Below, piece by piece: positions 15,947-61,402 of a DNA stretch of 64,000 nt (position 1 is its first letter; each line of letters starts with the position of its first letter). Location: positions 10,291 through 74,290 of the forward strand of contig CAZSMO010000008.1 of assembly GCA_964608175.1 (NCBI GenBank), in the 5' to 3' direction. Source of the stretch: an uncultured Muribaculaceae bacterium (lineage in GTDB: Bacteria > Bacteroidota > Bacteroidia > Bacteroidales > UBA932). A program made the position numbers and the translations under genes. Below the pieces are notes generated by a model. That model was not told the DNA's origin. It ran no database searches and was given only the letters and a program-made list of their open reading frames with translations.

Positions 15947-15948
15947 CG

Positions 15949-37772: not shown

Positions 37773-37857
37773 ACAGATACTTAACACTTTCAGCCCCCTA
37801 TTGCCGCGAGGGGGCTGAAAAGCTTAATATGCTATGTATCAATACCATGCAGGGAAA
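37751..37857. repeat. 107-bp palindromic element, copy at the 3' end of the HUH transposase
   Basis: TTTCCC...GGGAAA ends and inner stem TTTCAGCCCCCT / AGGGGGCTGAAA. Confidence 0.75.
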
Positions 37858-38786
37858 CGAATTATCTCTTTCACTTTGTCATATGGTACATGGAGGAATC
37901 TGGAGATGTATGTGTAGCCAGCTCGAACTCGGGAATTGATTTTAAGTATCCACCTTCGTACCTGTTTATCTGAAAGCCTATACGGATTCCACTCTGAAAG
38001 AGGCATTTCCTCTTTTACCAATTCAAGCATTTGATAATACGGGGAGTATGAATCCCTGTCATCCGGAAGTTCGAATTCACCTCCCATATTGCTGTCCGGA
38101 GCTGTAAGCATGTTGTCAAGACCACCGAAATAGTTTGCAGATGCTCCATAATCAATAACATTGTATATACCTATGATATAATCGACCAATCTCTTCCAGT
38201 GCTCCGCTGTCAAGTTGGATTTGAATAGGTAGAGTCGTGAAATTGACAAATGTTTCCCCTTTTCATAGGTTCTGCGAATCAATCTCATATATATTGGCAA
38301 GCGGTCATTGTGATGATGTTCAAGCCTTTTGGGAGAAAACGGCCGGTCCGAGATGGAATAGGCAAGGAGATTCCATTGGTATTGTACCGCTCTTTCGACT
38401 ATCTTCTTCTCCGGAGCATTGTTGGCTATGTAGTTGTGACAAGAGCGAAAAGCCTTGGGAGAATTTTTGGGGACATATTCTTCTGAAGGGGCAAAGACCG
38501 CTCCTTCTCTTTGGAACCATGCGTTATATTCATGAGCGAAAGCGGAACTCGTATTGCCAAGAAAAATACGAAGAGACTCAATCGATTGAGATTCACATAA
38601 TTTGTGCAAATGAGTCAGCATATAGCATAGCGCATAGACGCGAATCGAATACCTGAGTGCGTTGGTACACAATATTGTGAAATGACTGAGGATGATGACA
38701 TCATCGTAGAACAGGGGTGCCTTGTCGATGGTGATTTGGCAAGTGTGGAGCGGGGTGTCCGCTACAAATAAATGGAGGTTTTTCAT
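37839..38786 (-). mobile_element. HUH/Y1 tyrosine transposase (RAYT / IS200-TnpA-like) with C-terminal extension
   Basis: YALCYMLTHLHKL (HUH), REGAVF, CHNYIANN (catalytic Tyr) and YQWN; flanked by two 107-bp hairpins. Confidence 0.72.
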
Positions 38787-39021: not shown

Positions 39022-39873
39022 TTAAATCTGGAGAGTGTGATATTTGATGAGGCTGTCCATGGGGGCCTTGATGATTGTCCCCACCCTCATACCAAAGGCT
39101 GACGCGGCCTGTGAAAGCAGGTCCTGATAGTAGTAGGCAACACTGCCAACGCAGTTGAATTCATACTTCCGGTAGTCAGGATAATGGCTCACTATATTTT
39201 GGAAGAAATCCCTGAATGAACCCAACATCAAACCATGATAGTACGGATTACTGTGACGGTGATCCCCAACCCACTTACAGAATTGGGCACAATAGCGGTT
39301 TGGCTTGGGCTTGCAGTAAATCTGATCAAGAAGTTCTTCGCCCTCCTTCCCGATGAGTCCTTTCACCTCAGCAAAGACATCCGCAGGCATATCTCCACGC
39401 ATATAATCCACGATGAGCTTCTTCCCGATGTATGCACCGCTCCCCTCATCGCCGAGGATAAAGCCGAGCGAGTCAATATTAAGTGTAATTTCCTCACCAT
39501 CAAATAGGCAGGAATTGGTCCCAGTCCCGAGTATCGCGGCGAAACCGGCCTTGTGACCGAGCAGAGCCCTTGCCGAAGCCAGCAAATCCATGGCCACAAA
39601 CACTGTCCCAACGGAAGGGAATACCGCTCTGAATATCTCCTCCATCATGGGATAATGCATCGGGGTCACGCCCGCACCATAGAAATACACCTCCTCCACC
39701 TCACCCAGGGGAAAGCCCGAGGGAAGACTCTTCGTGATATCATCCCTAATCTCCTCTTTAGACATGTAGTTGGGATTGTAGCCCAGACTTTGGAATCTCA
39801 CTACTTTCTCACTTTTTCTGGAGCATGCGCCCCAATCGGTCTTGGTGGCACCGGAATCAGCTATCAGTATCAT
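39022..39873 (-). CDS. N-acetylhexosamine kinase-like (BadF/BadG/BcrA/BcrD ATPase family)
   Basis: LIADSGATKTDW, ILGTGTNS, GFILGDEGSGA and CVGSVA. Confidence 0.85.
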   Translation of the reverse strand: MILIADSGATKTDWGACSRKSEKVVRFQSLGYNPNYMSKEEIRDDITKSLPSGFPLGEVEEVYFYGAGVTPMHYPMMEEIFRAVFPSVGTVFVAMDLLASARALLGHKAGFAAILGTGTNSCLFDGEEITLNIDSLGFILGDEGSGAYIGKKLIVDYMRGDMPADVFAEVKGLIGKEGEELLDQIYCKPKPNRYCAQFCKWVGDHRHSNPYYHGLMLGSFRDFFQNIVSHYPDYRKYEFNCVGSVAYYYQDLLSQAASAFGMRVGTIIKAPMDSLIKYHTLQI

Positions 39874-41489: not shown

Positions 41490-41499
41490 ATCTCTCCGC

Positions 41500-42669
41500 T
41501 TAAAGCAGCTTCCGCATCTGCAAGTCAAACCGGTGAAATCTCTCAAACGACTCCGCATTGTACTTCCTGACAGAGTCGATATCAATGCCATAGGAACGGA
41601 ATATCTTATCAAGGCTACATCCGTGGCGGAACTCCTCCATCTCATAGCGTCTGACTGCGGGAAGGATTTCCTTACGAAGAAGACGCATGTCCAAATACAT
41701 TTCCCCACCATTAAACTTGTCCCAATAGGGATGAACTATATGCAGCAAACTATCCGCAAGGGCATTCGCACCGGCAATACCGTTTCCCGATGCGGTGAGT
41801 TGCGAGGGAATTTCATCGCCCGCTGCAAGCCATACCGGTACGGCATAGCAGCAGGGAGTATAGCCGATTGCAGTCCAAATGACGGACGAATTTGCTCTGT
41901 CTCCATCCCCTACTCCCTCTATTACAAGGGAAGAGATGGTGGTGGTACGCGGAATATAATCGAGGTCATATACCATATCCCCAGAGGCTTCCTTACCTGT
42001 CAAGGCATTGTAGAACGACCTTCCTGCCTTATCCAAAAGCCAGGCGGGGGAGAATCCGCTTTCCGCCTGCCTTGTCATCAAGGCACCTATGGTGGCGTAG
42101 CGTGCATAGCCCTGCCCCTTGCCATCCTGGCCGGAAAGAGAAAAATTAGTCCTGTACAGATACCCTCCTTCAGGCACATCATAGCGGGTATATCCCCCGT
42201 CCCAGGCCTCAAAATAGGCTGCTCCGCCATGTGCATCCATTACGGCGAAGTTTGCAGCAATCTCCCATTCCCCTTCCGAAAGCATCCTCTCAAAATCATC
42301 AACACTTTTGCATGAGGCTAGGGCAAGAGACATTACCCTGCCGGCACAGGTGTGCAGGCCGAGCGAATCGGGGCGGATATTGTAAGAGAGATTGTTGGCA
42401 ATCGCAAAGCCTGCATCATTGACTCCGGCATATGCGCTGAGGCGCAGGGTGTCATCTGAATTAAACACTGCTGTGTAGGAGTGGAATTCACTGCTGACAT
42501 GAGCAAGCACATTGTAAGTATCTGCCGCATCCCGCTGCTTCCAGAGCAGAGGTCTCCCCGTCCTGCTTGCTCCCGCTGAAACAATGGCCGTCGTACAGGC
42601 ATATGCCCTGACACAGACAACTGCGACAAAGCAGGTGCATACAGTTCTAATCAGTCCGGATATTCTCAT
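41500..42669 (-). CDS. Secreted Ntn-hydrolase (C45 / acyl-amidase-like)
   Basis: Signal peptide followed by the N-terminal nucleophile CTTAIV, GRPLLWKQRD and RTNFS; likely start 42669. Confidence 0.75.
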   Translation of the reverse strand: MRISGLIRTVCTCFVAVVCVRAYACTTAIVSAGASRTGRPLLWKQRDAADTYNVLAHVSSEFHSYTAVFNSDDTLRLSAYAGVNDAGFAIANNLSYNIRPDSLGLHTCAGRVMSLALASCKSVDDFERMLSEGEWEIAANFAVMDAHGGAAYFEAWDGGYTRYDVPEGGYLYRTNFSLSGQDGKGQGYARYATIGALMTRQAESGFSPAWLLDKAGRSFYNALTGKEASGDMVYDLDYIPRTTTISSLVIEGVGDGDRANSSVIWTAIGYTPCCYAVPVWLAAGDEIPSQLTASGNGIAGANALADSLLHIVHPYWDKFNGGEMYLDMRLLRKEILPAVRRYEMEEFRHGCSLDKIFRSYGIDIDSVRKYNAESFERFHRFDLQMRKLL

Positions 42670-42688
42670 TGACAACCTCAAATGACTA

Positions 42689-43882
42689 TCACTTGCGTAT
42701 CCTGTATCCCTTATAGGCATAATAGAAGATGAACAGATAGCAAGGCAGGCAAATCCAGTATGCAGCCTGATTGCCTATCACGTCTTTAAGGAAGCCGAAT
42801 ATCAGCGGGATAAGGGCTCCACCGCCAATGGAAGCTACCAAAAGCGAAGATCCCACCTTGGTAAAGCGTCCCAGATCCACAATCGCAAGGGGCCAGATTG
42901 CCGGATTCATAAGAGAGCAGGACAGACCAAGGAAAGCCACACACCACACGGAAAGCTTCGGCGGAGTAAGCACAATGAGCAGTGACCCCACGAGAGCAAC
43001 CCAGCAACAGATTCGAAGGGCTCTGACCTGGGACAAACACTTGGGAATGAGGATAATCCCAGCCACATAGCCGATTGCCATGCCCACCGAAGGCCAGATG
43101 GCGTAGGTCTGCGGATTTCGAAGTCCGAGCCAGGCCGCATAATCTACAACGGAAGAGAGAGCAAGAGTCTCAACCCCTGTGTAGAAAAAGAGGGCAAGTG
43201 CCCCAAGCACGAGATGAGGGAACTGCCATATTGATTTTTTTCCTGCCGCATAGGGGCAATCTTCCGGATCTGCCTCACCTGCGGCCTTAACCTCTTCCAA
43301 TGGGGCAAACAGAACAAGGATGCCGAGGGCAATGAAGATACAGATTATAATGATAAAAGGCTTCTGCGTATCGGCAAGAGTAGCATCTCCCAATTGTTTC
43401 CCTATCACTGCTGCAAGAAAGATGGGAGCCACAGCCCAAGCAAGAGAGTTGCAGATTCCCATTATACTCATCCTTCTGGCGGCACTGTCGATGGGTCCGA
43501 GAATGGTGACATAGGGATTTATAGCTGCCTGAAGGACCGTGTTTGCTACTCCGCTGAGAAAGGAAGCAAGGATAAAAAGAACGAGACTGCCGAGCTTTGC
43601 TGAAGGGATAAAAAGAAGGAACGCTATGGCGAACATGAAGAAAGACAAGGACATAGTTCGCTTATAACCAATCCGCCCGATTATTTTGGCAGCAGGGTAA
43701 CTGCATAGCAGGAACGCGCAGAAAGTAGAAGCCACAAGCAGATACGATTCCCCCGAAGAAATCGCAAGGGTAGACTGGAGCAAGGGAATCAGATAGGAAT
43801 TGATCCCCATTGCAAAGCCAACAGTGAAAAACATTACCCCGATACAAGCCAGGGGCAAGGCATACGATCTTCGTATCGTCAT
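42689..43882 (-). CDS. MFS sugar transporter (GluP/FucP/NagP-like)
   Basis: About 12 TM segments, LQAAINPYVTILGP and FFYTGVE; likely start MTIRRS at 43882. Confidence 0.87.
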   Translation of the reverse strand: MTIRRSYALPLACIGVMFFTVGFAMGINSYLIPLLQSTLAISSGESYLLVASTFCAFLLCSYPAAKIIGRIGYKRTMSLSFFMFAIAFLLFIPSAKLGSLVLFILASFLSGVANTVLQAAINPYVTILGPIDSAARRMSIMGICNSLAWAVAPIFLAAVIGKQLGDATLADTQKPFIIIICIFIALGILVLFAPLEEVKAAGEADPEDCPYAAGKKSIWQFPHLVLGALALFFYTGVETLALSSVVDYAAWLGLRNPQTYAIWPSVGMAIGYVAGIILIPKCLSQVRALRICCWVALVGSLLIVLTPPKLSVWCVAFLGLSCSLMNPAIWPLAIVDLGRFTKVGSSLLVASIGGGALIPLIFGFLKDVIGNQAAYWICLPCYLFIFYYAYKGYRIRK

Positions 43883-43908: not shown

Positions 43909-44967
43909 TCAAAAAGGAAGGGATGAATAGAGGCCGTTGAAAGTCTGCATACCCTTCCAAGTAGGAGTGCCGAAGGTGGCACTGTTGTTGGAGGCATCAC
44001 AAATCACCCACTGCCCATCAACATAAATCTCCGAGATGACATGGCCGATGACCCTTCCGCCGGAGAAATAGCACTGTCCGTGAATATACCTGGCAGGGAT
44101 TCCAGCTGCTCTTGACATCGCTACAATCGCATGCGAAAGGTCACAACAGTTGCCGCCAAGAGCCTCAATCGTACCTACAGCTCCTTTACGGGTATTGCTG
44201 TAGTCCTCCCACTCCCATTTGTCGCGGGCATATTCGAAAATGGCTACAGCCTTGTCGTGATTTGTGGTCAACCCCTCGGTTGCAGTCTGCATCGTGGACA
44301 CCACAAGCGGGTCGTCAATCGGGCAGTTGGAAGAGCTGCGCAGAAAATCCGACCACCAGGCGGAAACCTTGTCGGGGAGGACAAGGTTGTTCCTGTAGTA
44401 ATTCATGATTCTCGCCATGATCACAACGGCGGCTGGGAAAATCAGCTTTCCAACGTATTCTTCGCTGTAATTGTACTCCACAGTAGATTCACCGCTGAAG
44501 TCGCTTTTCCATGTCCTCGTGCCGAAATTGCAGTAATTGGGATAGGCATTGTGCTCTGCGGCATAGTCTTTCACCTTCCCTATCATCCACTTGACGGCAT
44601 CGAGAGAGATGGAATCCTGCTCAAAGGTATTGTTCTGCATCACGGAACCGCCGGCGTACTTGGGAATCTCGACCTCGCTCTGTTCCTGCCAGGTATCAGG
44701 GTAGGCTTCAATGAGTTCAAGCAATCCGACCGCAGCAGAGAAGCAGTCGGAACGGGTGTAGTTAATCCCTTCCACATTAACCATGGACGGCATCTCATCG
44801 GTCTTCACGAATTCATCGTAGGCATCGGAGATTGCCTGGAGAAATTCCCCGTTCCATGAAGTGGCGGTGAAGACTTCAGGCTCCTGCGGAGTTGGATTCT
44901 CGGAGCGGCAGGAGCAGCACAACAGCATAGAGCCAGCTGCAAGAGCAATAACAAGATTTTTATTCAT
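43909..44967 (-). CDS. Lipoprotein with pseudomurein-binding-repeat-like region and transglutaminase-like (Cys-His-Asp) peptidase domain
   Basis: GGNCCDLSH, AAGIPARYIHG, GHV and WVICDAS triad; N-terminal KVKDYAAEHNAYPNY and ARIMNYYRNNLVLPDKV resemble PMBR units; C-terminal YSSLPF. Confidence 0.8.
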   Translation of the reverse strand: MNKNLVIALAAGSMLLCCSCRSENPTPQEPEVFTATSWNGEFLQAISDAYDEFVKTDEMPSMVNVEGINYTRSDCFSAAVGLLELIEAYPDTWQEQSEVEIPKYAGGSVMQNNTFEQDSISLDAVKWMIGKVKDYAAEHNAYPNYCNFGTRTWKSDFSGESTVEYNYSEEYVGKLIFPAAVVIMARIMNYYRNNLVLPDKVSAWWSDFLRSSSNCPIDDPLVVSTMQTATEGLTTNHDKAVAIFEYARDKWEWEDYSNTRKGAVGTIEALGGNCCDLSHAIVAMSRAAGIPARYIHGQCYFSGGRVIGHVISEIYVDGQWVICDASNNSATFGTPTWKGMQTFNGLYSSLPF

Positions 44968-45071: not shown

Positions 45072-47957
45072 TTACAGAAGAGTAGCATCAATCTTGACAT
45101 CCGCAAGAGCGGTAGGAATATCGGAAGTAATGTTGTTATCAAGCATATACTTGAATGTCCTCGCAAGAATGAGATTGAAGCGCTCGGCGCAGCAGTAGCC
45201 GGAGTAGCCCTTCATGTTGTCAGTGAGGTTGTAGAAGTTGGCAACTCTTTTGCTATCGCCTGAATGTGAGGCAATCCTGTCAACCCACGTCTTGGAAAGG
45301 GTGTTAATCAGATTGTAGTCGGCCTGATTGGCTTCATAACCGTCAAGCTTGCAGGTATAAGGGTCGTTGCTCGGCTGACCTTCAACCCAGCCATTGGGTG
45401 CCCAGACATCAGTCCTGGCCTCGGGAGCGACATCACTTGTCTTGCCACCGGCTACAAGAGCCTGGAAGGCCTGCATGGCGATATCGTTCATGGCAGCCTT
45501 GCTGAGGGTAGTCCCATTGAAGGTGATTGTGAAATCATTGGGCACAATTCTGCCTTCCTGGGTGTAATCGGCTCCTGTAGGTTTGACGGAACCCTTGTTG
45601 CTCTCCCATTTGTCGAGATAAGTTACAAACTGCTTTGCAAAATCGGCAATGGTATTCTCACTCTTGGCAACATCCACACCGAAGAGGTCGGAGTTAAAGG
45701 TCTGATCTTCGGAAACCTCTGCGAGATTGTCGAGACTGTTGTCAAGAACATACTTAAAGACTCTTGCATAGGTGATGAGCCCGCGCTTTGCGGAGAACAT
45801 CCCATAGTAGTTGGTGATAGGACCGCGAGGATAACCCGACCCGTTACTGATTTGATCGTCTTTGTTGTTGGCCCAGTTCATGTTACGCTCCATCCAGTTG
45901 TCAAGGATGTCGAGTTTCACGGTATTGGCGAGGGCATGATCAGGATCTGCAGGATCTCCCAACATCAGAGGTCCGCCATTGCCGACTGTGGTGCTGTCTG
46001 TCCTGGTGTAACCGCCCTCGTTGTAAGGGAGCGAACCCCACGATGAGCCGTGAGTTGCAGGCAGAGCACTTGCAAGCGTGCCGGGGGCATCGAGCTTGGG
46101 AGTTGAACCTACTCCATATTTCTCGGTGTAGTTGCCATCGTAGCCGCGAAGGATTGCATAGCAGCGAAGAGCAAGCTCAAGCATGTCAGCGGTCGTATAC
46201 TCCTGCTCAAGAATGGTGCTCTTGGTGTCATCCGGCACATAGTGGGCATTCTCAACATTGTTGGCGGCATCGTAGTCGCTTCCACTGAAATTCAGTCCGG
46301 TAACCTTATTAATCGTGGTGGTATTAGCGGACCATATATCAATCAGCTTGACATACTGCTCAGCAAAATCGCGAATTGTAGCGACAGCCGCAGCCGACTG
46401 GGTCACCACGATGGTGACAGTGGTAGAACCGGCAGTCAGACCAACGTTCGCAATGCGCTCTGCACCGGTATTGACCTCGGCAGTAACGGTAATGACAGAA
46501 CCGCTTGCTGCTACGCCGGAAGCGGGAGAAACGGTAAGCCAAGCCTGATCGGAGCTTGCAGTCCAATCCTTGCCTGCATTGAAACGAATCTCCTGTGAGC
46601 CGCCATCTGCTATGATTGTGTACTCGGTCTTGCTGACTTCAAGGTCAGGAGCCTCAACTCCATAGAGGTCACAGGTAAAGCTGACATCCTTCACAGCCTC
46701 ATACACATTCTCGCTAATGTTGTTGTCGAGGATGTACTTGTAGAAGTTGGCAAGGGTGAGGAACATACGCATTGCAGACACATAACCGCGATAATTTCCT
46801 TCGGCAAGCTGATTGTCGGGATCGGTAGGATTGAAACCGAGGAAGTTTCCAATGTGTCCAAGTTGCTCGGCCCTCACGAGGAACCAGGCGGCATTGCGGA
46901 CGATGAACGAAGCATTGCATGGATTCTCAGCAGAAATGTTGATAGCTCCGAGTTCATCGGACTTCTCATACCAGGGATAGCTTCCCCAGGTAGCCCAGGC
47001 ATCAGCAGTAGGGATAGACTCCGAGAGAGCCTTTCCGCCACCGAGCGTGTGGTTGGGGGTATTGCGCTGCTCCTGTTTCACCGCAGAACCTTCCTTGGTG
47101 AGGATATCCAGCGCACCCTTTGCCGCCACAACGAAGCACTGTGCAGCATCGTAGGTCTGACCGGCCACGGTAATAGTGTGATAAGGCTGATACTGAGGGT
47201 CGTACTGATCCTTACCATCGGCATAGACACCGCCGCTCCAAGGGATAGGGACGAAGTGCACATTCTCCCAAGCTGTCCCGTTGTCCGTGCAGTGTGAGCC
47301 GTCTGCACTCACTGTACCAACGGTATTCTGCCAGATATCGAGATAGCCGACGAACTGGCGGGCAAAGCCCTTCAAAGTCGCCTCGGCAGACAGATAAGAA
47401 GTGGACACGGTGGCAGGGAGCTTCCCGTCGCTCTTGTACGCGGCAAGGGTTCTCAACATAGTGACAGTGGCCCTGTTGGTGGAGAAGGCGATGGCACCGC
47501 TGGTGCGCTGGAACACGGTCTGATTGGGAACCTGTCCGCGCTCGGCCATCTTGTCTATCAAAGAGTTTGCAATTCCGACAACACTCTCATCTCCTCCGCT
47601 GACAGCAATTTCTTCGGCATCATAACTATCCCTGTCCGGGTGATCGGCAGCCTTGTAATTGAGCACATCGACATCGCCGCCAGTCGTTCCCGCGCCGAGG
47701 TTGGAGACCACTTTGCAAAGAGCATATTGATACTGAGGAAGCGTAAGGGTAGTACTTCCAACAGTAACGGACTCCGGAATGGTGGTGGTGTTTTCCCATT
47801 CCGCATAAGCAGACGCAAATGCGTCAACAAGATCTGACTGGGAAAGAGTCGCGATGCTGTTGACATCGTCATTCTTGTCCTCTTTCTCCTTGGTGCAGGA
47901 GGACATAATCCCCACAAGAGCCAAGGCAGTCAGCAAAATTGACCAAAATTTTTTCAT
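45072..47957 (-). CDS. 961-aa surface lipoprotein: PMBR-like N-terminus, three internal repeats and a BACON domain
   Basis: Lipobox MSSC. Repeats start T(L/I)xxFAxQ(F/Y)V and end KYxLDN. BACON-like WTASSDQAWLTVSPASG. Confidence 0.7.
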   Translation of the reverse strand: MKKFWSILLTALALVGIMSSCTKEKEDKNDDVNSIATLSQSDLVDAFASAYAEWENTTTIPESVTVGSTTLTLPQYQYALCKVVSNLGAGTTGGDVDVLNYKAADHPDRDSYDAEEIAVSGGDESVVGIANSLIDKMAERGQVPNQTVFQRTSGAIAFSTNRATVTMLRTLAAYKSDGKLPATVSTSYLSAEATLKGFARQFVGYLDIWQNTVGTVSADGSHCTDNGTAWENVHFVPIPWSGGVYADGKDQYDPQYQPYHTITVAGQTYDAAQCFVVAAKGALDILTKEGSAVKQEQRNTPNHTLGGGKALSESIPTADAWATWGSYPWYEKSDELGAINISAENPCNASFIVRNAAWFLVRAEQLGHIGNFLGFNPTDPDNQLAEGNYRGYVSAMRMFLTLANFYKYILDNNISENVYEAVKDVSFTCDLYGVEAPDLEVSKTEYTIIADGGSQEIRFNAGKDWTASSDQAWLTVSPASGVAASGSVITVTAEVNTGAERIANVGLTAGSTTVTIVVTQSAAAVATIRDFAEQYVKLIDIWSANTTTINKVTGLNFSGSDYDAANNVENAHYVPDDTKSTILEQEYTTADMLELALRCYAILRGYDGNYTEKYGVGSTPKLDAPGTLASALPATHGSSWGSLPYNEGGYTRTDSTTVGNGGPLMLGDPADPDHALANTVKLDILDNWMERNMNWANNKDDQISNGSGYPRGPITNYYGMFSAKRGLITYARVFKYVLDNSLDNLAEVSEDQTFNSDLFGVDVAKSENTIADFAKQFVTYLDKWESNKGSVKPTGADYTQEGRIVPNDFTITFNGTTLSKAAMNDIAMQAFQALVAGGKTSDVAPEARTDVWAPNGWVEGQPSNDPYTCKLDGYEANQADYNLINTLSKTWVDRIASHSGDSKRVANFYNLTDNMKGYSGYCCAERFNLILARTFKYMLDNNITSDIPTALADVKIDATLL

Positions 47958-47986: not shown

Positions 47987-49351
47987 TTATTTACTGTTCC
48001 ACAAATCGCTCACATCGGGAAAATCTCCGAGCGGATAACGGAAAAGAACCACTCCAGAAGCATTGGAAGACGCAATGAGCTGACAGTCAGAAAGAAGTTC
48101 TTCCGTTGAGAGAGGAGTCACATTGTCGTCCCCCTGATAGGTCTGAATGCCGCTCCAGCATGGTTTTTTGTGGGTATTGGCGGCAAAATAATTGGACATC
48201 GACACCATCCAGCTGTTTCCTGCATTGTAGTTTCCTTTGTAAACCATTGGAATGAGAATGTCGAGATATTCGCTCATCATATCCTTGTCCTGCCCGTAGG
48301 CATAGGTCGTATTACGCTCCGGCATCATGGCAGCCGAGAGCACAATCCCCTCGTCATAGGCATCCACGGCCTCCCTAATCTGACGGCAGAACTCCGTCAC
48401 CGCCGTATAGTTATATATCCCCGCCTCGGGGTAGGCGTGCTTGGACGCAGTTCCAGGAAAACGGATGTAATCAAGATGCAGTCCCTTAACCCCGTAGTCT
48501 TCGAGGTAAGACTTTGCCCTCGCGATGATTCTGTCGAAAAGATCCTGTTTGAGAGTTTTGGAATCATCATCCACGGGGCAGACCCAGCCACCCTCATAGA
48601 AACACTGTACCCAGGCGTGGACCGTGATGTCATTCGCCTGCGCAGCCTCGATAAACTCCAGCGTTGTCTTACGGGCACTTTCATTAAAGGCAGCAGAATT
48701 GAGAAATACATGGTCGTAGCCCTTTGACTTCATCTCCTTCATCACAGCGCAGTCATTTTCAAGCCATTGCGCCCGGTGACTGCTCCAAAGCCAGATGCCG
48801 TTGGGTCTGGTCCCTTCGATAGTCATTACCTCGTTTTCCTTCCCCTTGCTGGAATAGGTCAGAGATTGCCACTGCCCTTCCCCATCGGGAATCCTCTGGT
48901 AAGAGCCTCTTGCAGAAAGAGCCACGGGGTCTGCAAAAGCAGTGCTTCTGGTAACTTCATCTATAGGCGCGCCGTCAGAGCTGAGAGCGAGCTTCAAGCT
49001 AAATTCACTGTCCGAAGCTATGCCGGTCGAAAGGCTCTCATCAGAAGTGGAAATGACAATGCGTTCGCCCTCACTTAAAGAAGTGCCCTCAGGAGCCGTC
49101 CACACATTTCTGCGATTGAAATACTGATCGGAAAGATACAGTCCAACTCCCGAAAGGTCCACAGAGGAAGATGACGTATTGAGCAATTCTACCCATGAAT
49201 CAGCATCCACAGTCTCATCGTGAGCCGAAATCTCATTGATAACAATCCCCTTGTACTTAGCGGCGGATTCCCCTTCGGCTGCATTTTTTCCGCAGGAGGC
49301 AAACGCAGCCAAAGCGAGCAGGGCAAGTATGGTATGATATGTCGTGTTCAT
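47987..49351 (-). CDS. Lipoprotein: lamin-tail-like domain plus TIM-barrel putative glycoside hydrolase
   Basis: IVINEI...DSWVELLN (LTD); GH-like VHAWVQCFY, GLHLDYIRFPG, YGQD, LDILIPMVYKGNY and GVVLFRY. Confidence 0.8.
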   Translation of the reverse strand: MNTTYHTILALLALAAFASCGKNAAEGESAAKYKGIVINEISAHDETVDADSWVELLNTSSSSVDLSGVGLYLSDQYFNRRNVWTAPEGTSLSEGERIVISTSDESLSTGIASDSEFSLKLALSSDGAPIDEVTRSTAFADPVALSARGSYQRIPDGEGQWQSLTYSSKGKENEVMTIEGTRPNGIWLWSSHRAQWLENDCAVMKEMKSKGYDHVFLNSAAFNESARKTTLEFIEAAQANDITVHAWVQCFYEGGWVCPVDDDSKTLKQDLFDRIIARAKSYLEDYGVKGLHLDYIRFPGTASKHAYPEAGIYNYTAVTEFCRQIREAVDAYDEGIVLSAAMMPERNTTYAYGQDKDMMSEYLDILIPMVYKGNYNAGNSWMVSMSNYFAANTHKKPCWSGIQTYQGDDNVTPLSTEELLSDCQLIASSNASGVVLFRYPLGDFPDVSDLWNSK

Positions 49352-49355: not shown

Positions 49356-50204
49356 CTAATTTATCTCGTGGGGTTGTTCTTTAAGCACTCCGGTCGAGAG
49401 AAGGTAATCTTCAGCCTCTGTAAGTCCGCCGCATTTCTTGATGGCAGTCTCGCAGGTAGCATAATCCAGGGTTGGATTGCGCTCCACCATGGTACGGGTC
49501 AGACGGTCAACCACCTTGTTGTTAATAAGGTGGGCGTGTACCATACGGTTACCCTGAACCCTGCCGAGACGGCACATGACGGTAGTGCTAATCATATCAC
49601 AGATGAGTTTCTGCGAAGTGCCGGACTTCATGCGGGTGGAGCCGGTGATAAACTCCGGTCCGGTAATGACCTCAACGGGGTAATCGGAATACCGGGAAAT
49701 TGGGGAATTGGGGTTATTGACAAATGAGCCGGTAGGGATTCCATGCTCTTTGCATGCTTTTAGCGCAGCCAGCACATAGGGAGTATTTCCGCTCGCAGAG
49801 ATTCCTACCACGATATCCTTTGGTGAAATGTGCTTTTCCTGCAAAGTCCTCCAACCTTCTTCGGTATCATCCTCAGCCTCTTCGAGATCCTGTACGAGAT
49901 TCTCTACCCCTCCTGCCAGCACGCACTGAAACATGTCGGGATCCACCCCGTAGGTATTAGGAATTTCGAGGATGTCGAGCACCGCCAGTTTGCCACCGGT
50001 CCCGCAACCGAGATAAAACATTCGTCCCCCGCCCCTTATCTGATGATCAATCGCGCAGACGAGCTTCTCAAGGTCAGGAAGGACCTTCTCGATAGCCAGA
50101 GGGACCTTCTTGTCCTCCTCATTGATTTCACGCAGCAGTTCCGCCACACTCTTCTTCTCCAAATTGTCGTGCAGAGAAGGCTGTTCAGTCATTCTTAATG
50201 CCAT
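49356..50204 (-). CDS. murQ: MurQ-like sugar-phosphate etherase (SIS domain), divergent
   Basis: EAEDD, GISASGNTPYV, TGPEFITGSTRMKSGTSQK; the canonical [15 protein letters not shown] is replaced by GCGTGGKLAVLDILE. Confidence 0.8.
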   Translation of the reverse strand: MALRMTEQPSLHDNLEKKSVAELLREINEEDKKVPLAIEKVLPDLEKLVCAIDHQIRGGGRMFYLGCGTGGKLAVLDILEIPNTYGVDPDMFQCVLAGGVENLVQDLEEAEDDTEEGWRTLQEKHISPKDIVVGISASGNTPYVLAALKACKEHGIPTGSFVNNPNSPISRYSDYPVEVITGPEFITGSTRMKSGTSQKLICDMISTTVMCRLGRVQGNRMVHAHLINNKVVDRLTRTMVERNPTLDYATCETAIKKCGGLTEAEDYLLSTGVLKEQPHEIN

Positions 50205-52064: not shown

Positions 52065-53887
52065 CAGAACTGTTTTTGTACCGCCTTCCCAACCGGCTTC
52101 CCACTGGGAGTGAATCCCTGGGCCCGGACAAGGGTCCCTGGAAGGGGAGTGAATACTTCAGTAAATACCGGGGACAAAGCTGTAGGAGCACTCCCATCGA
52201 GGGTATAATGGATTACAGCATCAGGATACGAGAGACGGAGATCGGCCTCATCCGGACGCTTCCTGGTAATGCTGTCGTAATTGAATATCACATTCCAGTA
52301 GGCACTGCTGTACCCCACTCCAAGGGCATCGAGTCTTTGGAAGGACTTTTCAAGACGGGAGCGGAAAGAATCCCAGTCCTTACTCTCGCGAGCCGTCCAG
52401 CCATCTTCGGCAAGGGCTATGGCGCGGGGAAATGCGAGATATTCCGCTCTATCGGAATTCTCACAATACTCACCCCAGATGCAGCCCTCAACCCCGATTA
52501 TATACTTTTCTGAAAGTTCCTGCAGAGAGTCCACACATGGGTAGTAGGAATATACCTTTTCGAGAGGGAGGAAGAGCGACTGGCTCTTGTGCTCGGTTTC
52601 GGGGTCTTCCTGATAGTAATCCAGGTAGCACCAACGGTTCGGAGCGAGGACTACCCTATTGCCGCGCCTGATACCCCGAGCTGCCGGGGCGTGTCCGCGA
52701 TAAGATTCGGCTATCATCCCAGGGACAGCTCCTCCATCGAGAATCTCATCCCACCCCATGACTGTCTTTCCATTGGCACTAAGGAAATTACCTATACGGT
52801 TCACAAAGAAAGTCTGCAAATCGTCATAACTGTCTATTCCGAGCACCGTCATCAGATTGCGGCAGTAGCTGCTGTTTTTCCATGCTGTCTTGGGACATTC
52901 GTCTCCTCCAATGTGGTAAACCGGTGAAGGGAAGAGTTCAAAAAGCTCCCTGAATACATCCTCCAGGAAAGTGAAAGTCGCGGCACTGGGGCAATACACA
53001 TCTTCCTTGACTCCCCAGCTCGTGGCTACGCTATAGGTCTTCGCAGTATCGCAGGAGAGTTCCGGGTAGGCGGCCAAAGCCGCAGTGGAATGTCCCGGGA
53101 GCTCAATCTCGGGGATAACAGTCACCATCCGGCGACGGGCATACTCCACGACCTCCCTCACATCATCTTGGGTATAATAGCCCTCAACTGGTTTTCCATC
53201 GGGATTTTCCCCGTGATAATCAGCGGTAAACGGCCTCTTGGAACCCACCTCGGTAAGACGGGGATATTTCTTAATCTCAATCCTCCAGCCCGAATCCTCG
53301 GTAAGATGCCAGTGAAAGATATTCTGCTTGTACCCTGACATCACATCGATGAACTTCAGAATGGTCTCCTTGGGGATAAAATATCTCCCGCAATCCAGCA
53401 TCAGCCCCCTATACTCAAATTGCGGAGCATCTTCGATATAGCAGCAGGCAGCCTTCCACTTCACTCCCCTGACCTTGGTCGGGGAGCAGATGGAGGCGGG
53501 GAAAAGTTGAAGCAGCGACTGCGCTCCATAAAATGCCCCGGCAGGAGCAGATGCCTCAATCAGGACCGCATCCCGACTGACTGTAAGGCGGTATTCTTCA
53601 TCCCCAAGTCCATCAACTCGCACAAAGGAGATACCTGCGCTCCCAGCGGTGTTCACCTTGATACGATAGCCGGTGGAGGCACTTACCCTTACAGCGAAAT
53701 CTTCCGCCACTTCGGCAAACAGCGGGTCTACAGAAATACCCGTCCTAGCTGTAAGGGTGAATTCCCCTTGCCTCTGCTCCAAAGACTTCGGGGCGGGGAT
53801 GATGTCATAGCGTCCCGGGGCAGCATGCAGAGCCGTCGCGAAGACAAGCGGCAGTATCACCGCGAAAAGTGTCCTAATCCGATTCAT
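52064..53887 (-). CDS. GH20 beta-N-acetylhexosaminidase (second paralog)
   Basis: HWHLTEDSGWR, PEIELPGH, HIGGDE and GWDE. Confidence 0.94.
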   Translation of the reverse strand: MNRIRTLFAVILPLVFATALHAAPGRYDIIPAPKSLEQRQGEFTLTARTGISVDPLFAEVAEDFAVRVSASTGYRIKVNTAGSAGISFVRVDGLGDEEYRLTVSRDAVLIEASAPAGAFYGAQSLLQLFPASICSPTKVRGVKWKAACCYIEDAPQFEYRGLMLDCGRYFIPKETILKFIDVMSGYKQNIFHWHLTEDSGWRIEIKKYPRLTEVGSKRPFTADYHGENPDGKPVEGYYTQDDVREVVEYARRRMVTVIPEIELPGHSTAALAAYPELSCDTAKTYSVATSWGVKEDVYCPSAATFTFLEDVFRELFELFPSPVYHIGGDECPKTAWKNSSYCRNLMTVLGIDSYDDLQTFFVNRIGNFLSANGKTVMGWDEILDGGAVPGMIAESYRGHAPAARGIRRGNRVVLAPNRWCYLDYYQEDPETEHKSQSLFLPLEKVYSYYPCVDSLQELSEKYIIGVEGCIWGEYCENSDRAEYLAFPRAIALAEDGWTARESKDWDSFRSRLEKSFQRLDALGVGYSSAYWNVIFNYDSITRKRPDEADLRLSYPDAVIHYTLDGSAPTALSPVFTEVFTPLPGTLVRAQGFTPSGKPVGKAVQKQF

Positions 53888-55269
53888 AACGAAGGTTCCT
53901 GCTGAATTGCATCGGCTATAGTTTTCTCCACACCATGCAGATAACTGTCCGGCATCGTTGAGGAAAGAGGATACGGGGCCTTGATATAGATATGCATCTG
54001 TTCAGTCTCATACTCATAGCCTTTATGTACCTGATAGGCCCGTTTCGAGGGGAGATAGGAATTTTGTCCGTTGGTGTAGCCGGCAAAGAAAATTGTCCTG
54101 TCAGGGAAGGCGGCACGGGTTTCCATCTGATACTCACAGAAAGGCTCTCCATCGGAGAAGAAGAAAAGCACCCCGTTGACATCAAGGGCATGGAGGTGAT
54201 AACGGAGTTTGGATGGGACTTCTCCATGTGTGAACCTGTCCAAAATCTCCTTCTCCCATCTTCTCACATCATCTCCAAACGAAGCCGACACCTTGGAGGC
54301 CGTAGCCGCAAGCGAATCAGCGTGGTGCATTACCGCCTCAGGGGTTATGGAGTCAATCTGATACGGCAAATCAACCGTCTCATTCACAAGGTTCAGATAG
54401 CCTGCGTCCGGGATTTTTCTAAAAGACATTCCGACAAGGGAATCCGCGAGAGACTTACCGCATTGCCCTGCATAAGTGCTGTCGCGAGGTCCGAGAACAG
54501 GATCCATATTGCCGGCAGCTCCAGTGAGTTGGAACACCTCCCCTCCCCAAGCCTTCGAAAGGTATCTTGCCGCAACTCCGGGATAGTCAGAGGACAGGGC
54601 GAGGCTCTTCGGTCCCATGCAGACAGGGTGACAGGCGAGGTTGACGATAGAGACTCTGACCCTTCCTTTTTGGAGAAATCTTGCCACATATACATCGTGG
54701 TCCACGGGGCCGCCCTTCTCGCAACGATTGGCATTGATGGAGGTATGCGCTTTACCAACTTCCATGGTAAAGGGAGCAAAGGCGCGCTCATCAGTAATGG
54801 CCTGCACAGCATTTGACACAACGGTCTCCACCATCCTAATCTTCCATGCACGGTTCGTTCCACCTTCCTGTATGGAAGGCCCGCCAGAGCGCGGTGCCGA
54901 ATGGGTGTGGATGCAATGCATCAGGATTCTGTCTTTGGGAAAGCCAGCCCTCTCGGAAATCATTGTCCTTATCGTGTCCGAAATTGCGGGAGAAAGTTCC
55001 ATGAGGTCATTTGAGATAAGGCATACCTGCTCTCCACCGGGCTCTTTCAGCACGAGACAGTGGGTATAGATTTTCTGATGTATTCCATCCGACAGCTTGT
55101 TTCGCGCCGCAAAACCAGCGAGGATAGTGTGCTCCTCGGGAGTTGTGGAAATGTCAGCCGAGCGGTAACTCATCTCAAGCGAGGGCTTCCCGCTGCAACT
55201 GAAAAGCCCGGTCAGCAGGGCGATACAGAGACAATATCCGATAAGTCTTTTCATCACTGAATGTTGCAA
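53884..55269 (-). CDS. Neutral/alkaline ceramidase-like amidohydrolase lipoprotein
   Basis: LAGFAAR, HCIHTHSAP, ACHPV, SSDYPG, GEPF and AGYTNG...YLP; lipobox LFSC. Confidence 0.72.
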   Translation of the reverse strand: MQHSVMKRLIGYCLCIALLTGLFSCSGKPSLEMSYRSADISTTPEEHTILAGFAARNKLSDGIHQKIYTHCLVLKEPGGEQVCLISNDLMELSPAISDTIRTMISERAGFPKDRILMHCIHTHSAPRSGGPSIQEGGTNRAWKIRMVETVVSNAVQAITDERAFAPFTMEVGKAHTSINANRCEKGGPVDHDVYVARFLQKGRVRVSIVNLACHPVCMGPKSLALSSDYPGVAARYLSKAWGGEVFQLTGAAGNMDPVLGPRDSTYAGQCGKSLADSLVGMSFRKIPDAGYLNLVNETVDLPYQIDSITPEAVMHHADSLAATASKVSASFGDDVRRWEKEILDRFTHGEVPSKLRYHLHALDVNGVLFFFSDGEPFCEYQMETRAAFPDRTIFFAGYTNGQNSYLPSKRAYQVHKGYEYETEQMHIYIKAPYPLSSTMPDSYLHGVEKTIADAIQQEPSL

Positions 55270-57292: not shown

Positions 57293-57299
57293 GGTGATT

Positions 57300-60445: not shown

Positions 60446-60599
60446 CAAACATAAGAAAAAATTTCGTTAGTGAAAGCTTTTTAGGCAAAAATTTTTTCGT
60501 TTTCCCGATTTTTTTGTTTCGTTCACAACCTAAAACGAAACATTTTCGAAATATGCAGGGGTTAAACGAAACTTTTCGTATCTTGCAGAAAATTTCGTT
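60446..60599. promoter_or_regulatory. Divergent promoter region with repeated TTTCGTT/AACGAAA operator-like heptamers
   Basis: TTTCGTT at 60462, 60495, 60517 and 60593; AACGAAA at 60534 and 60565; near matches at 60544 and 60574. Confidence 0.6.
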
Positions 60600-60637
60600 T
60601 GCTACCTGCCATGGCAGGTGGAGGTCTAAAATATATT

Positions 60638-61402
60638 ATGGGAGCAATTTTAGAGAGGAGAAAATACATCCTCGATGCAATCGTAGATCAGGGCTTTGTT
60701 AAAGTCTCATCCCTCGCCACCAAGTTCGGCGTCACTCAAACCACAATCCGTAAGGACCTTAATTATCTTGAGAGTCAAGGACTTCTATACAGGGCATACG
60801 GCAGTGCCCTCCCGACCGCAGCTCCCATAAAAGATATCAGTCTGGAGACCAAGAAAAGGATCAATTATGAAAAGAAGCAGAAAATCGCCGAGGCCGCCTG
60901 CTCCCTGATTGAGCCAAACGACTCAATCATCATTGCTTCAGGGTCCACAATGGCTGTCTTTGCCGATCATATCAAGCCCAAGGACAGGCTCAATGTGGTG
61001 ACCTCCGCAGTGAACATCTCGGCCAGCCTTGGGGAGACTGACAATGTCACAGTCATGCAGGTAGGCGGCATACTCTATTCCAACACACTCTCTGTCTCTG
61101 GAAACGATGCAATAGAGTTTATCCGTAACATCTTCTGCAACAAACTCTTCTTTGGCGGGGACGGGCTGGACCCGCAGTACGGCGTGACCTGCGCGGTGAG
61201 GGAGGAGGCGGAACTCACCAAACAGATGATGCAGTCCTCCAAGACTCACATCCTTCTGTGCGATTCCACCAAACTAGGCAGGAAAGGCTTTGCCCGCATC
61301 TGCCCAATTGAGGATATCGACATCCTAATCACCGATGATGAACTCCCGGCCGAGGGTAAAGAGCATATTGAAGCGGCTGGCGTTAAGGTAATTATAGCAT
61401 AG
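60638..61402 (+). CDS. DeoR/GlpR (AgaR-like) transcriptional regulator
   Basis: HTH VTQTTIRKDLNYLE...RAYG, IIIASGST and LLCDSTKLG; divergent from SusC; likely start 60638. Confidence 0.92.
   Translation: MGAILERRKYILDAIVDQGFVKVSSLATKFGVTQTTIRKDLNYLESQGLLYRAYGSALPTAAPIKDISLETKKRINYEKKQKIAEAACSLIEPNDSIIIASGSTMAVFADHIKPKDRLNVVTSAVNISASLGETDNVTVMQVGGILYSNTLSVSGNDAIEFIRNIFCNKLFFGGDGLDPQYGVTCAVREEAELTKQMMQSSKTHILLCDSTKLGRKGFARICPIEDIDILITDDELPAEGKEHIEAAGVKVIIA

Follow-up and report, generated by a model that had tools for sequence, protein, structure and literature searches.

A predicted lipoprotein with PMBR-like units and a transglutaminase fold in a conserved SusC/SusD locus of Bacteroidales and its possible role in cell-wall foraging

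The gene at positions 43909..44967 (minus strand) of the window, the whole 64,000-nucleotide stretch of DNA analysed here, encodes a 352-aa protein with PMBR-like units in its N-terminal half and a transglutaminase-like domain in its C-terminal half. We propose, with a probability of roughly 0.45, that this protein is a surface endopeptidase of a cell-wall-foraging locus and that bacterial murein is its likeliest substrate. It is a component of a Sus-like PUL that is kept across rumen and gut Bacteroidales, and the locus as a whole appears to digest microbial cell walls.

The gene and the two halves of its product

The ORF starts with ATG and is a real gene, far beyond chance: a search at E <= 1e-3 returned 211 homologues of a length similar to that of the 352-aa protein, and the Pfam model Transglut_core matches the product at E 4.6e-19. 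Among the matches listed (120 of the 211), just two family proteins carry a source name, which is 'Bacteroidales bacterium' in both cases. All peptide strings quoted in the initial annotation were recovered by re-translation, in the order given there. The AF2 model of the protein has a mean pLDDT of 93. An NCBIfam search with the protein gave no match, and a weak vRNAP_dom match as well as Achromobacter phage tblastn matches (E about 8) were set aside as noise.

The product is predicted to be a bacterial lipoprotein that is probably exposed on the cell surface. The lipobox proposed for it is plausible: the signal peptide (44914..44967, minus strand) reads MNKNLVIALAAGSMLLC-C18, with the lipobox-like LLC-C, and the Cys18 column is kept in most relatives in a 61-sequence alignment. 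LPAM_1 matches were obtained in 3 of the 61 relatives scanned. In many relatives K-D-D/E stands shortly behind the lipobox Cys, where the window protein has SCRSENP instead.

The best explanation of the N-terminal half is that it consists of three degenerate PMBR-type units, which would form a wall-glycan-binding module. Unit 1 (residues 38-71; 44755..44856, minus strand) aligns in hhalign with PMBR 1 of ORF35 from Methanobacterium virus Drs3 and is modelled as a helix (residues 38-56) that is followed by strands (residues 62-71), with MPSMVNVEG as the strand sequence. Unit 2 (residues 119-147, ...KVKDYAAEHNAYPNY; 44527..44613, minus strand) aligns with Drs3 PMBR 2 and is the sole unit recognised by the Pfam PMBR model, PF09373, which gives 15.5 bits for residues 119-145 alone and stays below its gathering threshold of 24.9. 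Unit 3 (residues 175-202, ...ARIMNYYRNNLVLPDKV; 44362..44445, minus strand), which is separated from unit 2 by a beta insertion of roughly 27 residues, aligns with Drs3 residues 113-137, and an HMM of the archaeal N-domain matches residues 157-201. The PMBR units claimed in the initial annotation are therefore weak when the single protein is considered, but at the level of the family they hold. PF09373 is matched at E <= 0.1 by 43 of the 61 relatives (best 1.5e-10), and the profile-profile comparison (hhalign) of residues 30-200 with the archaeal Drs3-like PMBR region gives a probability of 96.9% and an E of 1.3e-10, with 125 colinear columns spanning all three Drs3 PMBRs.

The linker NCPIDD (44311..44328, minus strand) follows a pattern, NC[QPE]xxD, that is kept in archaeal, viral and bacterial members. 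Its N214 and C215 are nearly invariant in the 61-sequence family alignment, and N22 and C23 (alignment numbering) of the linker are invariant in the cross-domain alignment A2. The transglutaminase-like core (residues 227-325; 43993..44289, minus strand) scores 69.1 bits with PF01841, well above the gathering threshold of 23, and the same model is matched by all 61 relatives tested; the core is further matched by 3isr in sequence and by 3isr, 8jx4 and 8z4f in Foldseek. The Cys-His-Asp triad had been described as intact, and it is: the predicted nucleophile Cys274 (GNC274CD; codon 44146..44148), which aligns with GVCRD of 3isr and INCTD of PeiP, His309 (IGH309V; 44041..44043) and Asp324 (ICD324AS; 43996..43998), all on the minus strand, are invariant in both the family and the cross-domain alignment. 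Cys275, Asp276, L350 and F352 are likewise invariant in the family alignment. The C-terminal half is best explained as a transglutaminase-fold cysteine hydrolase acting through Cys274, His309 and Asp324, for which we infer hydrolase and not transferase chemistry.

The protein ends in LPF-COOH (43912..43920, minus strand), which can be considered a signature of the subfamily, since LPF also closes about 54 of the 59 sequences that were taken from the genome scan. The variants (about seven) comprise five LEF plus LDF and LTF, all from Bacteroidales, and one archaeal LAF. A search of representatives yielded 461 clusters at E <= 1e-10, and in most of them the domain stops at the last residue of the protein.

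Relatives in archaea, viruses and other bacteria

Over its full length the 352-aa protein is homologous to archaeal PMBR-transglutaminase proteins, and in hhalign (E 8.8e-59) it is colinear with proteins of Methanobacteriales and with the PMBR-transglutaminase encoded by Methanobacterium virus Drs3. Drs3 ORF35 (AXN53416.1, 'pseudomurein-binding repeat protein'), in which three PMBR stretches are found (E 2.7e-17), was compared along with chromosomal proteins of Methanobacterium, Methanothermobacter and Methanosphaera. These proteins and the window protein have in common three PMBR units, the NC[QP]xxD linker, the GNCCD...GH...D core and the C-terminal (E/S)LPF, and the identity between ORF35 and the window protein is 39.5% across the catalytic half. 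The linker, the triad spacing and the xLPF end, which the initial annotation had pointed out, were all found in Methanobacteriales and Drs3 proteins. We use the name Drs3-ORF35-type subfamily (NC[QP]xxD ... GNCCD ... (E/S)LPF-COOH) for an informal group defined in the present analysis, to which the window protein belongs by its full-length colinearity, its linker motif and its extreme C-terminal catalytic domain ending in LPF. It differs from the Drs3-type proteins in its bacterial lipoprotein signal, in PMBR units that lie under the Pfam threshold and in insertions at residues ~89-118 and 148-174. Moreover, its gene is located in a SusC/D locus, whereas the Drs3-type domains occur in a virus lysis module or in a multidomain archaeal surface protein. 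Candidatus Rifleibacterium and an uncultured bacterium (L088, L079) also have PG_binding_1-transglutaminase proteins of the same catalytic subfamily, with an NCQ linker and an LPF end, and P0148-P0150 are of this kind too; in all of these the murein-binding PG_binding_1 replaces PMBR, and they are not PUL lipoproteins.

The description of the protein as 'Pei-like' stands for fold and domain architecture alone and does not extend to membership in C71/PF12386. On the one hand, full-length PeiP (8z4f_A) is the top structural match of the AF2 model in the PDB (Foldseek, E 5.6e-10, 328 columns), PeiP (Q77WJ4) is also the top match in BFVD, and the catalytic domain of PeiW (8jx4) is matched with a TM of 0.65, normalised by the PeiW chain length. 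In PeiP and PeiW (MEROPS C71), as in the window protein, N-terminal PMBR units precede a C-terminal Cys-His-Asp transglutaminase-fold domain. On the other hand, PF12386 (Peptidase_C71) gives no match to the 352-aa protein at E <= 1, BLASTP against PeiP gives E 0.38, and no chain of PeiP or PeiW came up when the PDB was searched by sequence at E <= 1. For these reasons we do not place the protein in the PeiW/PeiP family. PF12386 scores 20.7 bits with Drs3 ORF35 (threshold 22) and 25.7 bits with L079. Identity to PeiP and PeiW is 14-17% in structural alignments, and the two fall into another subfamily of the fold; in PeiP there are four PMBRs, and neither an NCxxxD linker nor an LPF end is present. 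The PMBR match that was looked for was obtained at the profile level, and the structural match was obtained with full-length PeiP. By sequence, the closest solved catalytic domain is 3isr, a putative cysteine protease of Cytophaga hutchinsonii (E 8.5e-8). It aligns structurally at 26-27% identity and an rmsd of 2.7-4.2 A over 132-142 columns, but the similarity covers the catalytic core alone (91 residues by sequence), and its motif is GVCRD where the window protein has GNCCD.

The Bacteroidales relatives in the genome scan, mostly rumen and gut MAGs, form one clade (93% bootstrap), the best species-representative match being 68% identical over the catalytic domain. Every Bacteroidales carrier found comes from a methanogenic habitat (rumen, gut, digesters), and the family is missing from most Bacteroidota. 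The nearest relatives outside this clade belong to Clostridia and Methanobacteriales; in the genome scan, the protein's own clade is followed by Methanobacteriales, one Clostridia MAG, Rifleibacterium and one uncultured bacterium. In a rooted NJ tree, whose deep nodes are weak and whose outgroups are very distant, the Bacteroidales clade falls inside Methanobacteriales diversity. We rejected a placement of the protein within generic bacterial transglutaminase-like proteins, and because the closest outside relatives are Methanobacteriales, Drs3 and a few other bacteria, the sharing across domains that had been put forward as interdomain gene transfer is real. However, it is not an isolated transfer, considering the large Bacteroidales family, the PUL synteny and the host-like GC content. 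A recent transfer or phage origin was also rejected because the GC content of the gene (0.50-0.53) agrees with that of the rest of the window, no phage genes were found near the ORF, and synteny is kept across the species loci examined (51).

Composition of the SusC/SusD locus

All genes from SusC through the kinase, including that of the 352-aa lipoprotein, are located on one strand (minus), and a DeoR-family regulator (60599..61402, plus strand; Pfam DeoRC, HTH_DeoR) is divergently transcribed. The SusC-like TonB-dependent transporter (57300-60392) and the SusD-like protein (55286-57319), both identified by Pfam, are followed by a neutral-ceramidase-like amidohydrolase candidate (53884..55269; PF04734 E 1.3e-10), which is joined to GH20 as a fusion in the homologous locus L004, and by two GH20 beta-N-acetylhexosaminidases (52064-53887 and 50217-52064; PF00728 E 1e-108 and 3.5e-118). 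The next gene encodes a MurQ-family N-acetylmuramic acid 6-phosphate etherase (49356..50204), which reaches 298 bits with NF003915 (cutoff 168), remains under the TIGR00274 equivalog cutoff and gives strongly conserved alignments (E 4e-57 to 9e-55) with MurQ proteins of solved structure.

Three lipoprotein genes are adjacent. The first encodes a 454-aa protein with an LTD and a DUF4015 glycosidase-like TIM barrel (47987..49351; Pfam), the second a 961-aa BACON protein (45072..47957; BACON and BACON_2 in Pfam), and the third is the 352-aa gene itself. The 961-aa protein, a candidate surface glycan-binding protein, is syntenic in nearly all loci examined, and its residues 41-190 form a PMBR-like module that was recognised both by an HMM of the N-domain of the transglutaminase family (i-E 5e-10) and by one of the archaeal PMBR region (i-E 5e-7). 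Beyond the lipoproteins lie a NagP/GluP-type MFS sugar transporter (42689..43882, its start likely being the ATG at 43882; NF046060 E 9e-79, TIGR01272 above cutoff), a C45/AAT-like Ntn hydrolase (41500-42720) and aminopeptidase C (PepC, 40122-41711), the latter two assigned by Pfam and NCBIfam. The MurK/K1058-family (BadF/BcrA-type) amino-sugar kinase (39022..39873) matches PDB 1zxo at E 2e-68 and T. forsythia MurK (8ow9) at E 4.5e-57; its pocket motif is D-S-L (Asp-Ser-Leu/Cys), whereas the lactyl pocket of MurK is Ser-Pro-Leu (S-P-L). A 315-aa ORF at 37839-38786 matched no family. Lysozyme/GH73, Amidase_2/3, NlpC/P60, LD-carboxypeptidase and NamZ families were all absent among the locus proteins scanned.

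The gene order is the same around homologues at 47-65% identity, and the same neighbours are present within 10 kb in most of 51 Bacteroidales species loci, with gaps mainly where the flanking DNA is short. The DUF4015 lipoprotein is 30-43% identical to the GHL10/DUF4015 domain of Methanobacterium, which shares one ORF with a PMBR-transglutaminase. As strong evidence for pseudomurein this fusion was downgraded, because relatives at 43-44% identity are also labelled Methanomicrobiales and Actinobacteria, and both groups are without pseudomurein.

The MurNAc pathway described for Bacteroidetes is murTKQ (PMC5790795). As in murTKQ of Tannerella forsythia (PMC5790795, PMC10465942), a sugar transporter, a BcrAD/BadFG-type MurK/K1058 kinase and MurQ are encoded together in the window. 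Unlike in T. forsythia, a SusC/D locus that also encodes surface lipoproteins, GH20s and peptidases surrounds the trio, the kinase pocket reads D-S-L/C and not S-P-L, and the transporter belongs to the NagP/GluP type.

Murein or pseudomurein as the substrate

We suggest that fragments of microbial sacculi would be bound at the cell surface by the 352-aa enzyme together with the 961-aa BACON/PMBR-like protein, that the DUF4015 lipoprotein would cut the glycan strands, and that the 352-aa enzyme would open the mesh by hydrolysing amide bonds in the peptide part. The bonds in question could be cross-link or isopeptide bonds, as for PeiW and PeiP, or the amide between peptide and glycan, as for the PNGases that share the fold. 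The fragments would be imported by SusC/SusD, and in the periplasm the ceramidase-like amidase would trim them along with the GH20 enzymes. Amino sugars would reach glycolysis by way of the MFS transporter, the MurK-family kinase and MurQ, and PepC and the C45-like peptidase would use up the peptides.

Murein is the likeliest substrate because MurQ acts specifically on the lactyl ether of MurNAc-6-phosphate; together, MurQ and the MurK-family kinase indicate murein rather than methanogen walls. Further support comes from the score of MurQ above the NF003915 subfamily cutoff and its strong alignment with MurQ structures, from the resemblance of transporter, kinase and MurQ to murTKQ, with a kinase of the T. 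forsythia MurK family, from the fusion of the catalytic subfamily to murein-binding PG_binding_1 in Rifleibacterium and another bacterium, and from the finding that published PMB domains bind lysozyme-treated bacterial wall fragments too (PMC3124540). Several observations count against murein. Both the binding module and the catalytic domain have their closest counterparts in archaea with pseudomurein walls, and the DUF4015 partner has close relatives there as well; the usual murein enzyme families were not found among the locus proteins scanned; the kinase pocket is unlike that of MurK, MurQ is below the TIGR00274 cutoff, and the carriers all come from methanogenic habitats.

It is possible, although we consider it the less likely case, that the protein is a pseudomurein-directed endoisopeptidase and that the locus forages on or attacks Methanobacteriales walls with a binding module, a peptidase and a glycosidase-like enzyme obtained from methanogens or their viruses. 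The bonds cut may then be Ala-epsilon-Lys or Glu-gamma-Ala, the GH20s would take off beta-1,3-GlcNAc/GalNAc, and, as a speculation, the MurK/MurQ-like pair would act on 3-O-substituted GlcNAc (TalNAcA-1,3-GlcNAc-6-P) by beta-elimination, as for the 3-O-lactyl group of MurNAc. Slightly more doubtful still is the fuller proposal of a pseudomurein utilisation locus, the first bacterial system that would bind, cut and eat the Methanobacteriales wall, in which rumen and gut Bacteroidales would have captured PMBR, isopeptidase and DUF4015 from methanogens or methanogen viruses and wired them to SusC/D, with the MurK/MurQ-like pair re-tuned to 3-O-substituted GlcNAc. The PepC and C45-like peptidase families are not known to be specific for D-amino acids, which agrees with pseudomurein, as do the kinase pocket motif, the missing murein hydrolase families and the habitat that the carriers share with Methanobrevibacter and Methanosphaera. 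The colinearity with Drs3 ORF35 and Methanobacterium proteins and the position of the Bacteroidales clade in the tree point in the same direction; in addition, the second PMBR-like lipoprotein and the DUF4015 enzyme mirror the Methanobacterium GHL-PMBR-transglutaminase architecture, and three PMBR-type units are kept, the number required for pseudomurein binding (PMC3124540). However, these units have diverged so far that they stay under the Pfam threshold, and they contain insertions; the weak deep nodes of the tree and the very distant outgroups behind its root weigh against the phylogenetic argument, the DUF4015 relatives extend beyond pseudomurein-walled groups, and the function of the archaeal relatives is itself predicted. 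Finally, pseudomurein is without MurNAc, and we know of no role for MurQ beyond MurNAc-6-P.

It is improbable that the enzyme is a peptide-glycan amidase and not a cross-link endopeptidase, a variant of either the murein or the pseudomurein reading in which it would cut the MurNAc-lactyl-L-Ala or the TalNAcA-Glu amide, strip off the whole peptide and leave naked glycan to SusC/D. The PNGase structures 2f4m and 3esw are among the further Foldseek matches, and no Amidase_2/3 family amidase was seen among the locus proteins scanned, but the ceramidase-like protein could serve as the amidase, and the only enzymes characterised so far with PMBR-transglutaminase architecture cut an isopeptide bond that lies within the peptide (PMC2989375). 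We give equally little weight to a role other than wall hydrolysis, be it that of a true transglutaminase (cross-linking or deamidating), a surface protease on proteins or glycoproteins, or a housekeeping autolysin of the cell's own wall: Transglut_core families contain transferases as well as proteases, and their substrates vary widely (PMC10318531); TgpA, LapG and TGase 2/3 are found among the fold matches, yet the gene has a strictly conserved position in a catabolic SusC/D operon amid glycosidases, etherase, transporters and peptidases, the N-terminal module is of the wall-binding type, and housekeeping is disfavoured because most Bacteroidota do not have the family.

The Bacteroidales family, uncharacterised as a whole, provides a clear case of wall-degrading modules that are common to archaea, archaeal viruses and bacteria, and it places the PMBR-transglutaminase architecture in many rumen and gut Bacteroidales species, within a nutrient-harvesting locus. 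Pseudomurein-opening enzymes are known solely from methanogen viruses and prophages (PeiW, PeiP, PeiR). Such enzymes are of practical interest for the lysis of methanogens and the reduction of ruminant methane (PMC6189367, PMC8963448). If pseudomurein is the target, the carriers would naturally feed on methanogens or antagonise them and would supply methanogen-lytic enzymes of mesophilic origin, and the enzyme could lyse living rumen methanogens or weaken them. We looked in the literature for a peptidoglycan PUL, for PMBR-transglutaminases in Bacteroidetes and for the paper behind 8z4f/8jx4, and found nothing relevant. If murein is the target, as we prefer, this would be a Sus-type locus for eating bacterial peptidoglycan, undescribed in the literature found, with a non-canonical endopeptidase and a wall-binding module, and it would bear on the recycling of carbon and nitrogen in the rumen.

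The lipoprotein gene, its catalytic domain and its repeats

The open reading frame at 43909..44967 on the minus strand, which in translation begins with ATG and encodes 352 amino acids, is a real gene, since its product matches Pfam Transglut_core (E 4.6e-19, residues 227-325), has 211 homologues at E <= 1e-3, gives an AlphaFold model with a mean pLDDT of 93 (from 61 relatives) and carries positions invariant in the family alignment (Cys274, Cys275, Asp276, His309, Asp324 and the terminal Leu350/Phe352). All the peptide segments quoted in the initial annotation are present in it. Among the 120 matches listed of the 211, lengths are mostly 323-382 amino acids, with a few fragments. A putative lipoprotein signal occupies the N terminus, MNKNLVIALAAGSMLLC-C18, and Cys at this position is common to most relatives in the family alignment.

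The N-terminal half contains three units resembling the pseudomurein-binding repeat (PMBR, PF09373), at residues 38-71, 119-147 and 175-202, separated by insertions at approximately residues 89-118 and 148-174. The repeats proposed in the initial annotation remain below threshold when this protein is searched alone (15.5 bits against 24.9, residues 119-145 only), whereas the assignment, as judged from sequence profiles, is solid at the level of the family: PF09373 is matched at E <= 0.1 by 43 of 61 relatives (best 1.5e-10), and in hhalign the N-terminal profile (residues 30-200) and that of the PMBR region from Drs3-like archaeal proteins are colinear over 125 columns (probability 96.9%, E 1.3e-10).

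Relationship to viral, archaeal and Pei proteins

Within the phage collection, Methanobacterium virus Drs3 supplies the top match: its ORF35, annotated as 'pseudomurein-binding repeat protein', combines three PMBRs with Transglut_core and is 39.5% identical to the lipoprotein over residues 197-352 (tblastn E 2e-23, pairwise E 2e-31). The GNCCDLSH motif and the positions of GH and D are common to the two proteins, and the ELPF that ends ORF35 corresponds to SLPF in the lipoprotein; the linker is NCQVND in ORF35 and NCPIDD in the lipoprotein. The family and archaeal profiles align over their full length (E 8.8e-59).

The resemblance to the pseudomurein endoisopeptidases PeiP and PeiW holds for fold and architecture and not for family. 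Membership of the Pei family is rejected, as the Pfam search gave no match to PF12386 (Peptidase_C71), BLASTP against PeiP gave E 0.38, and neither PeiP nor PeiW is among the PDB sequence-search matches. The PDB structure search, however, ranks full-length PeiP (8z4f) at the top (E 5.6e-10, 328 columns spanning both halves), with 3isr, a transglutaminase-like protease from Cytophaga, next and the PeiW catalytic domain 8jx4 lower in the ranking (TM 0.65 normalised by PeiW chain length); PeiP is again the top match in the viral-model structure search. The lipoprotein therefore has the fold and architecture of Pei enzymes, yet is part of a separate subfamily of the transglutaminase fold.

When residues 197-352 were used in a full HMMER scan of cluster representatives, 2196 reached E <= 1e-3, and 461 of them the stricter E <= 1e-10; in most of these the domain extends to the final residue, with protein lengths running from 125 to 1326 aa. 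Those with a name include Methanobacterium formicicum, a Clostridia MAG and a 'Transglutaminase/GH18/PMBR' protein. One genome per GTDB species was also searched by pattern, and 80 of the 106 relatives so found were kept, approximately 51 of them from Bacteroidales MAGs. These carriers are mostly from rumen or ruminant gut and include some Candidatus Cryptobacteroides, one Alistipes and a few digester MAGs. Relatives at 39-55% identity are found in Methanobacterium, Methanothermobacter, Methanosphaera and unclassified Methanobacteriota MAGs, and on the bacterial side in one Clostridia MAG, Candidatus Rifleibacterium and one uncultured bacterium. The C-terminal end is LPF in 54 of 59 sequences taken from the scanned loci; LEF, LDF or LTF occurs in seven Bacteroidales variants and LAF in one archaeal sequence.

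The wall-binding module differs by host across the subfamily. Methanobacterium has GHL10/DUF4015, three PMBRs and transglutaminase, and the Clostridia MAG has a dockerin, a PMBR-like region and transglutaminase, while PG_binding_1, a murein-binding domain, takes the place of PMBR ahead of transglutaminase in Ca. Rifleibacterium (L088 6854-7762), an uncultured bacterium (L079 9545-10447) and the relatives P0148-P0150. The L079 protein exceeds the Peptidase_C71 gathering threshold (25.7 versus 22). The Dockerin_1 of the Clostridia protein (L063 8525-10465, MAG from goat colon) makes it putatively cellulosome-attached.

Neighbour joining of 76 catalytic-domain sequences over 164 columns (200 bootstraps; outgroups PeiP and vir080) groups the Bacteroidales, including Alistipes, in a single clade with 93% support, to which the Clostridia sequences, that of L063 included, are sister. 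Both fall within Methanobacteriales diversity in this tree, whose deep nodes are weak and outgroups distant. The interdomain transfer proposed in the initial annotation agrees with this placement, but because of those nodes and outgroups a direction from archaea or viruses to bacteria is only the simplest reading. The surroundings of the gene do not differ in GC content from the window as a whole, so any transfer would be old.

The surrounding Sus-like locus

Pfam and NCBIfam scans place the gene in a cluster running in one direction, with a divergent DeoR regulator (60599-61402). The cluster comprises SusC-like (57300-60392) and SusD-like (55286-57319) genes, a ceramidase-like protein (53884-55269, minus strand), two GH20 hexosaminidases (52064-53887 and 50217-52064), MurQ (49356-50204), an LTD+DUF4015 lipoprotein (47987-49351), a 961-aa BACON lipoprotein (45072-47957), the transglutaminase-fold lipoprotein, a NagP/GluP-type MFS transporter (to ~43882), a C45-like hydrolase (41500-42720), aminopeptidase C (40122-41711) and a BadF/BcrA-type kinase (39022-39873, minus strand). 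The mechanical call starts the transporter at TTG 43960, overlapping the 3' end of the transglutaminase gene; ATG 43882, 27 nt downstream of that gene's stop, is the likelier start and would give tight operon spacing.

Gene order is kept around homologues only 47-65% identical, where an extra DUF4015 gene, a glutamate symporter, an M20+C1 peptidase and a GHL10 gene are often added. By tblastn, MurQ, both GH20s, LTD-DUF4015, BACON, MFS, kinase, C45 and PepC lie <= 10 kb from the transglutaminase gene in most of 51 Bacteroidales loci, absences being chiefly where flanking DNA is short. On contig JAFRSW010000022.1 of a goat-omasum Bacteroidales MAG, two copies of the gene (L039 and L053) lie ~17.6 kb apart, each accompanied by parts of the locus, which looks like a duplicated or tandem PUL. 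Three further SusC-like genes occur elsewhere in the window (1663-4890, 6339-10859, 14426-24000), and two have a SusD-like partner (6339-10859 and 19467-24000). Unusually for a PUL, the second of these pairs adjoins an esterase as well as two ADP-ribosylglycohydrolase-family proteins (506 and 1207 aa). The window also encodes an anaerobic ribonucleotide reductase, NrdD (27664-29865), which would fit an anaerobic way of life, and a type I dehydroquinase-EPSP synthase fusion (32208-34190, 660 aa).

With 298 bits, MurQ clears the NF003915 cutoff of 168 and falls under the TIGR00274 equivalog cutoff; its alignments with solved MurQ structures (E 4e-57 to 9e-55) are strongly conserved, and two conserved acidic positions presumably correspond to the catalytic glutamates of E. 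coli MurQ. Along its whole length the kinase aligns with the T. forsythia MurK/K1058 family (8ow9 E 4.5e-57, 1zxo E 2e-68). At the positions of MurK Ser133-Pro134-Leu135, the lactyl pocket (PMC10465942), it has Asp-Ser-Leu, so its sugar specificity may differ from MurNAc; in related loci the motif reads Asp-Ser-Cys for 43 of 45 orthologues.

The ceramidase-like protein, directly after SusD, resembles neutral ceramidase and has no match in PDB or NCBIfam. In L004 (431-3565), the closest related locus, it and a GH20 hexosaminidase form one protein of 1044 aa, which suggests that it acts on the substrate of GH20, with amidase or deacetylase as possible activities. In the BACON lipoprotein, a candidate for surface glycan binding, a PMBR-like module at residues 41-190 is recognised both by the family N-domain HMM (i-E 5e-10) and by that of the archaeal PMBR region (i-E 5e-7), and the C-terminal part of the module recurs more weakly near residues 714-741 and 911-942. 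Between the 454-aa lipoprotein and Methanobacteriales loci the DUF4015 domain, GHL10/DUF4015 in the latter, is 30-43% identical (E down to 7e-45). In all matched archaeal loci except L071 and L067 a copy shares a reading frame with PMBR-transglutaminase; in most it lies N-terminal to three PMBRs and transglutaminase, as in L082 (8279-10465) and L062 (7625-10447).

Which cell wall is the probable substrate?

The gene content is what would be expected of a Sus-like system acting on a polymer composed of both amino sugars and peptides, i.e. a microbial cell wall. Because the transglutaminase-fold protein is the sole candidate peptide-bond hydrolase among the three lipoproteins and carries a wall-binding-type module, it is probably the outer endopeptidase or amidase, which would open sacculus fragments ahead of SusC/D import. 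We favour murein as the target, at a probability of about 0.45. The bond cleaved by MurQ is the lactyl ether of MurNAc-6-P, and the same catalytic subfamily is joined to PG_binding_1 in other bacteria. The transporter, kinase and MurQ also parallel the Bacteroidetes murTKQ pathway (PMC5790795), and PMB domains attach to lysozyme-treated bacterial wall fragments (PMC3124540).

A locus directed at pseudomurein, the wall of Methanobacteriales, is a less probable though serious alternative. On the one hand, the binding module and the peptidase are closest to Methanobacteriales proteins, the DUF4015 partner has close relatives there, the usual murein hydrolase and amidase families were not found among the scanned locus proteins, the kinase departs from the MurK lactyl pocket, and all carriers were found in methanogenic habitats. 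On the other hand, relatives of the archaeal DUF4015 domain at 43-44% identity are also labelled Methanomicrobiales and Actinobacteria. That the lipoprotein is a peptide-glycan amidase variant is improbable, and a non-wall or housekeeping function is equally so.

The combination of a wall-binding repeat with a transglutaminase-fold cysteine hydrolase is of a kind already known, and PMBRs had been recorded in a few bacterial proteins by 2010 (PMC2989375). According to database and literature searches, what appears to be new is a large, unannotated family of predicted Bacteroidales lipoproteins with this architecture, the constant position of that family within a SusC/D locus that also encodes MurQ, a MurK-like kinase, GH20s and peptidases, and the two or three modules that the locus has in common with Methanobacteriales surface proteins. 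The alternatives at stake are a peptidoglycan-eating locus and what would be the first bacterial pseudomurein-degrading system.
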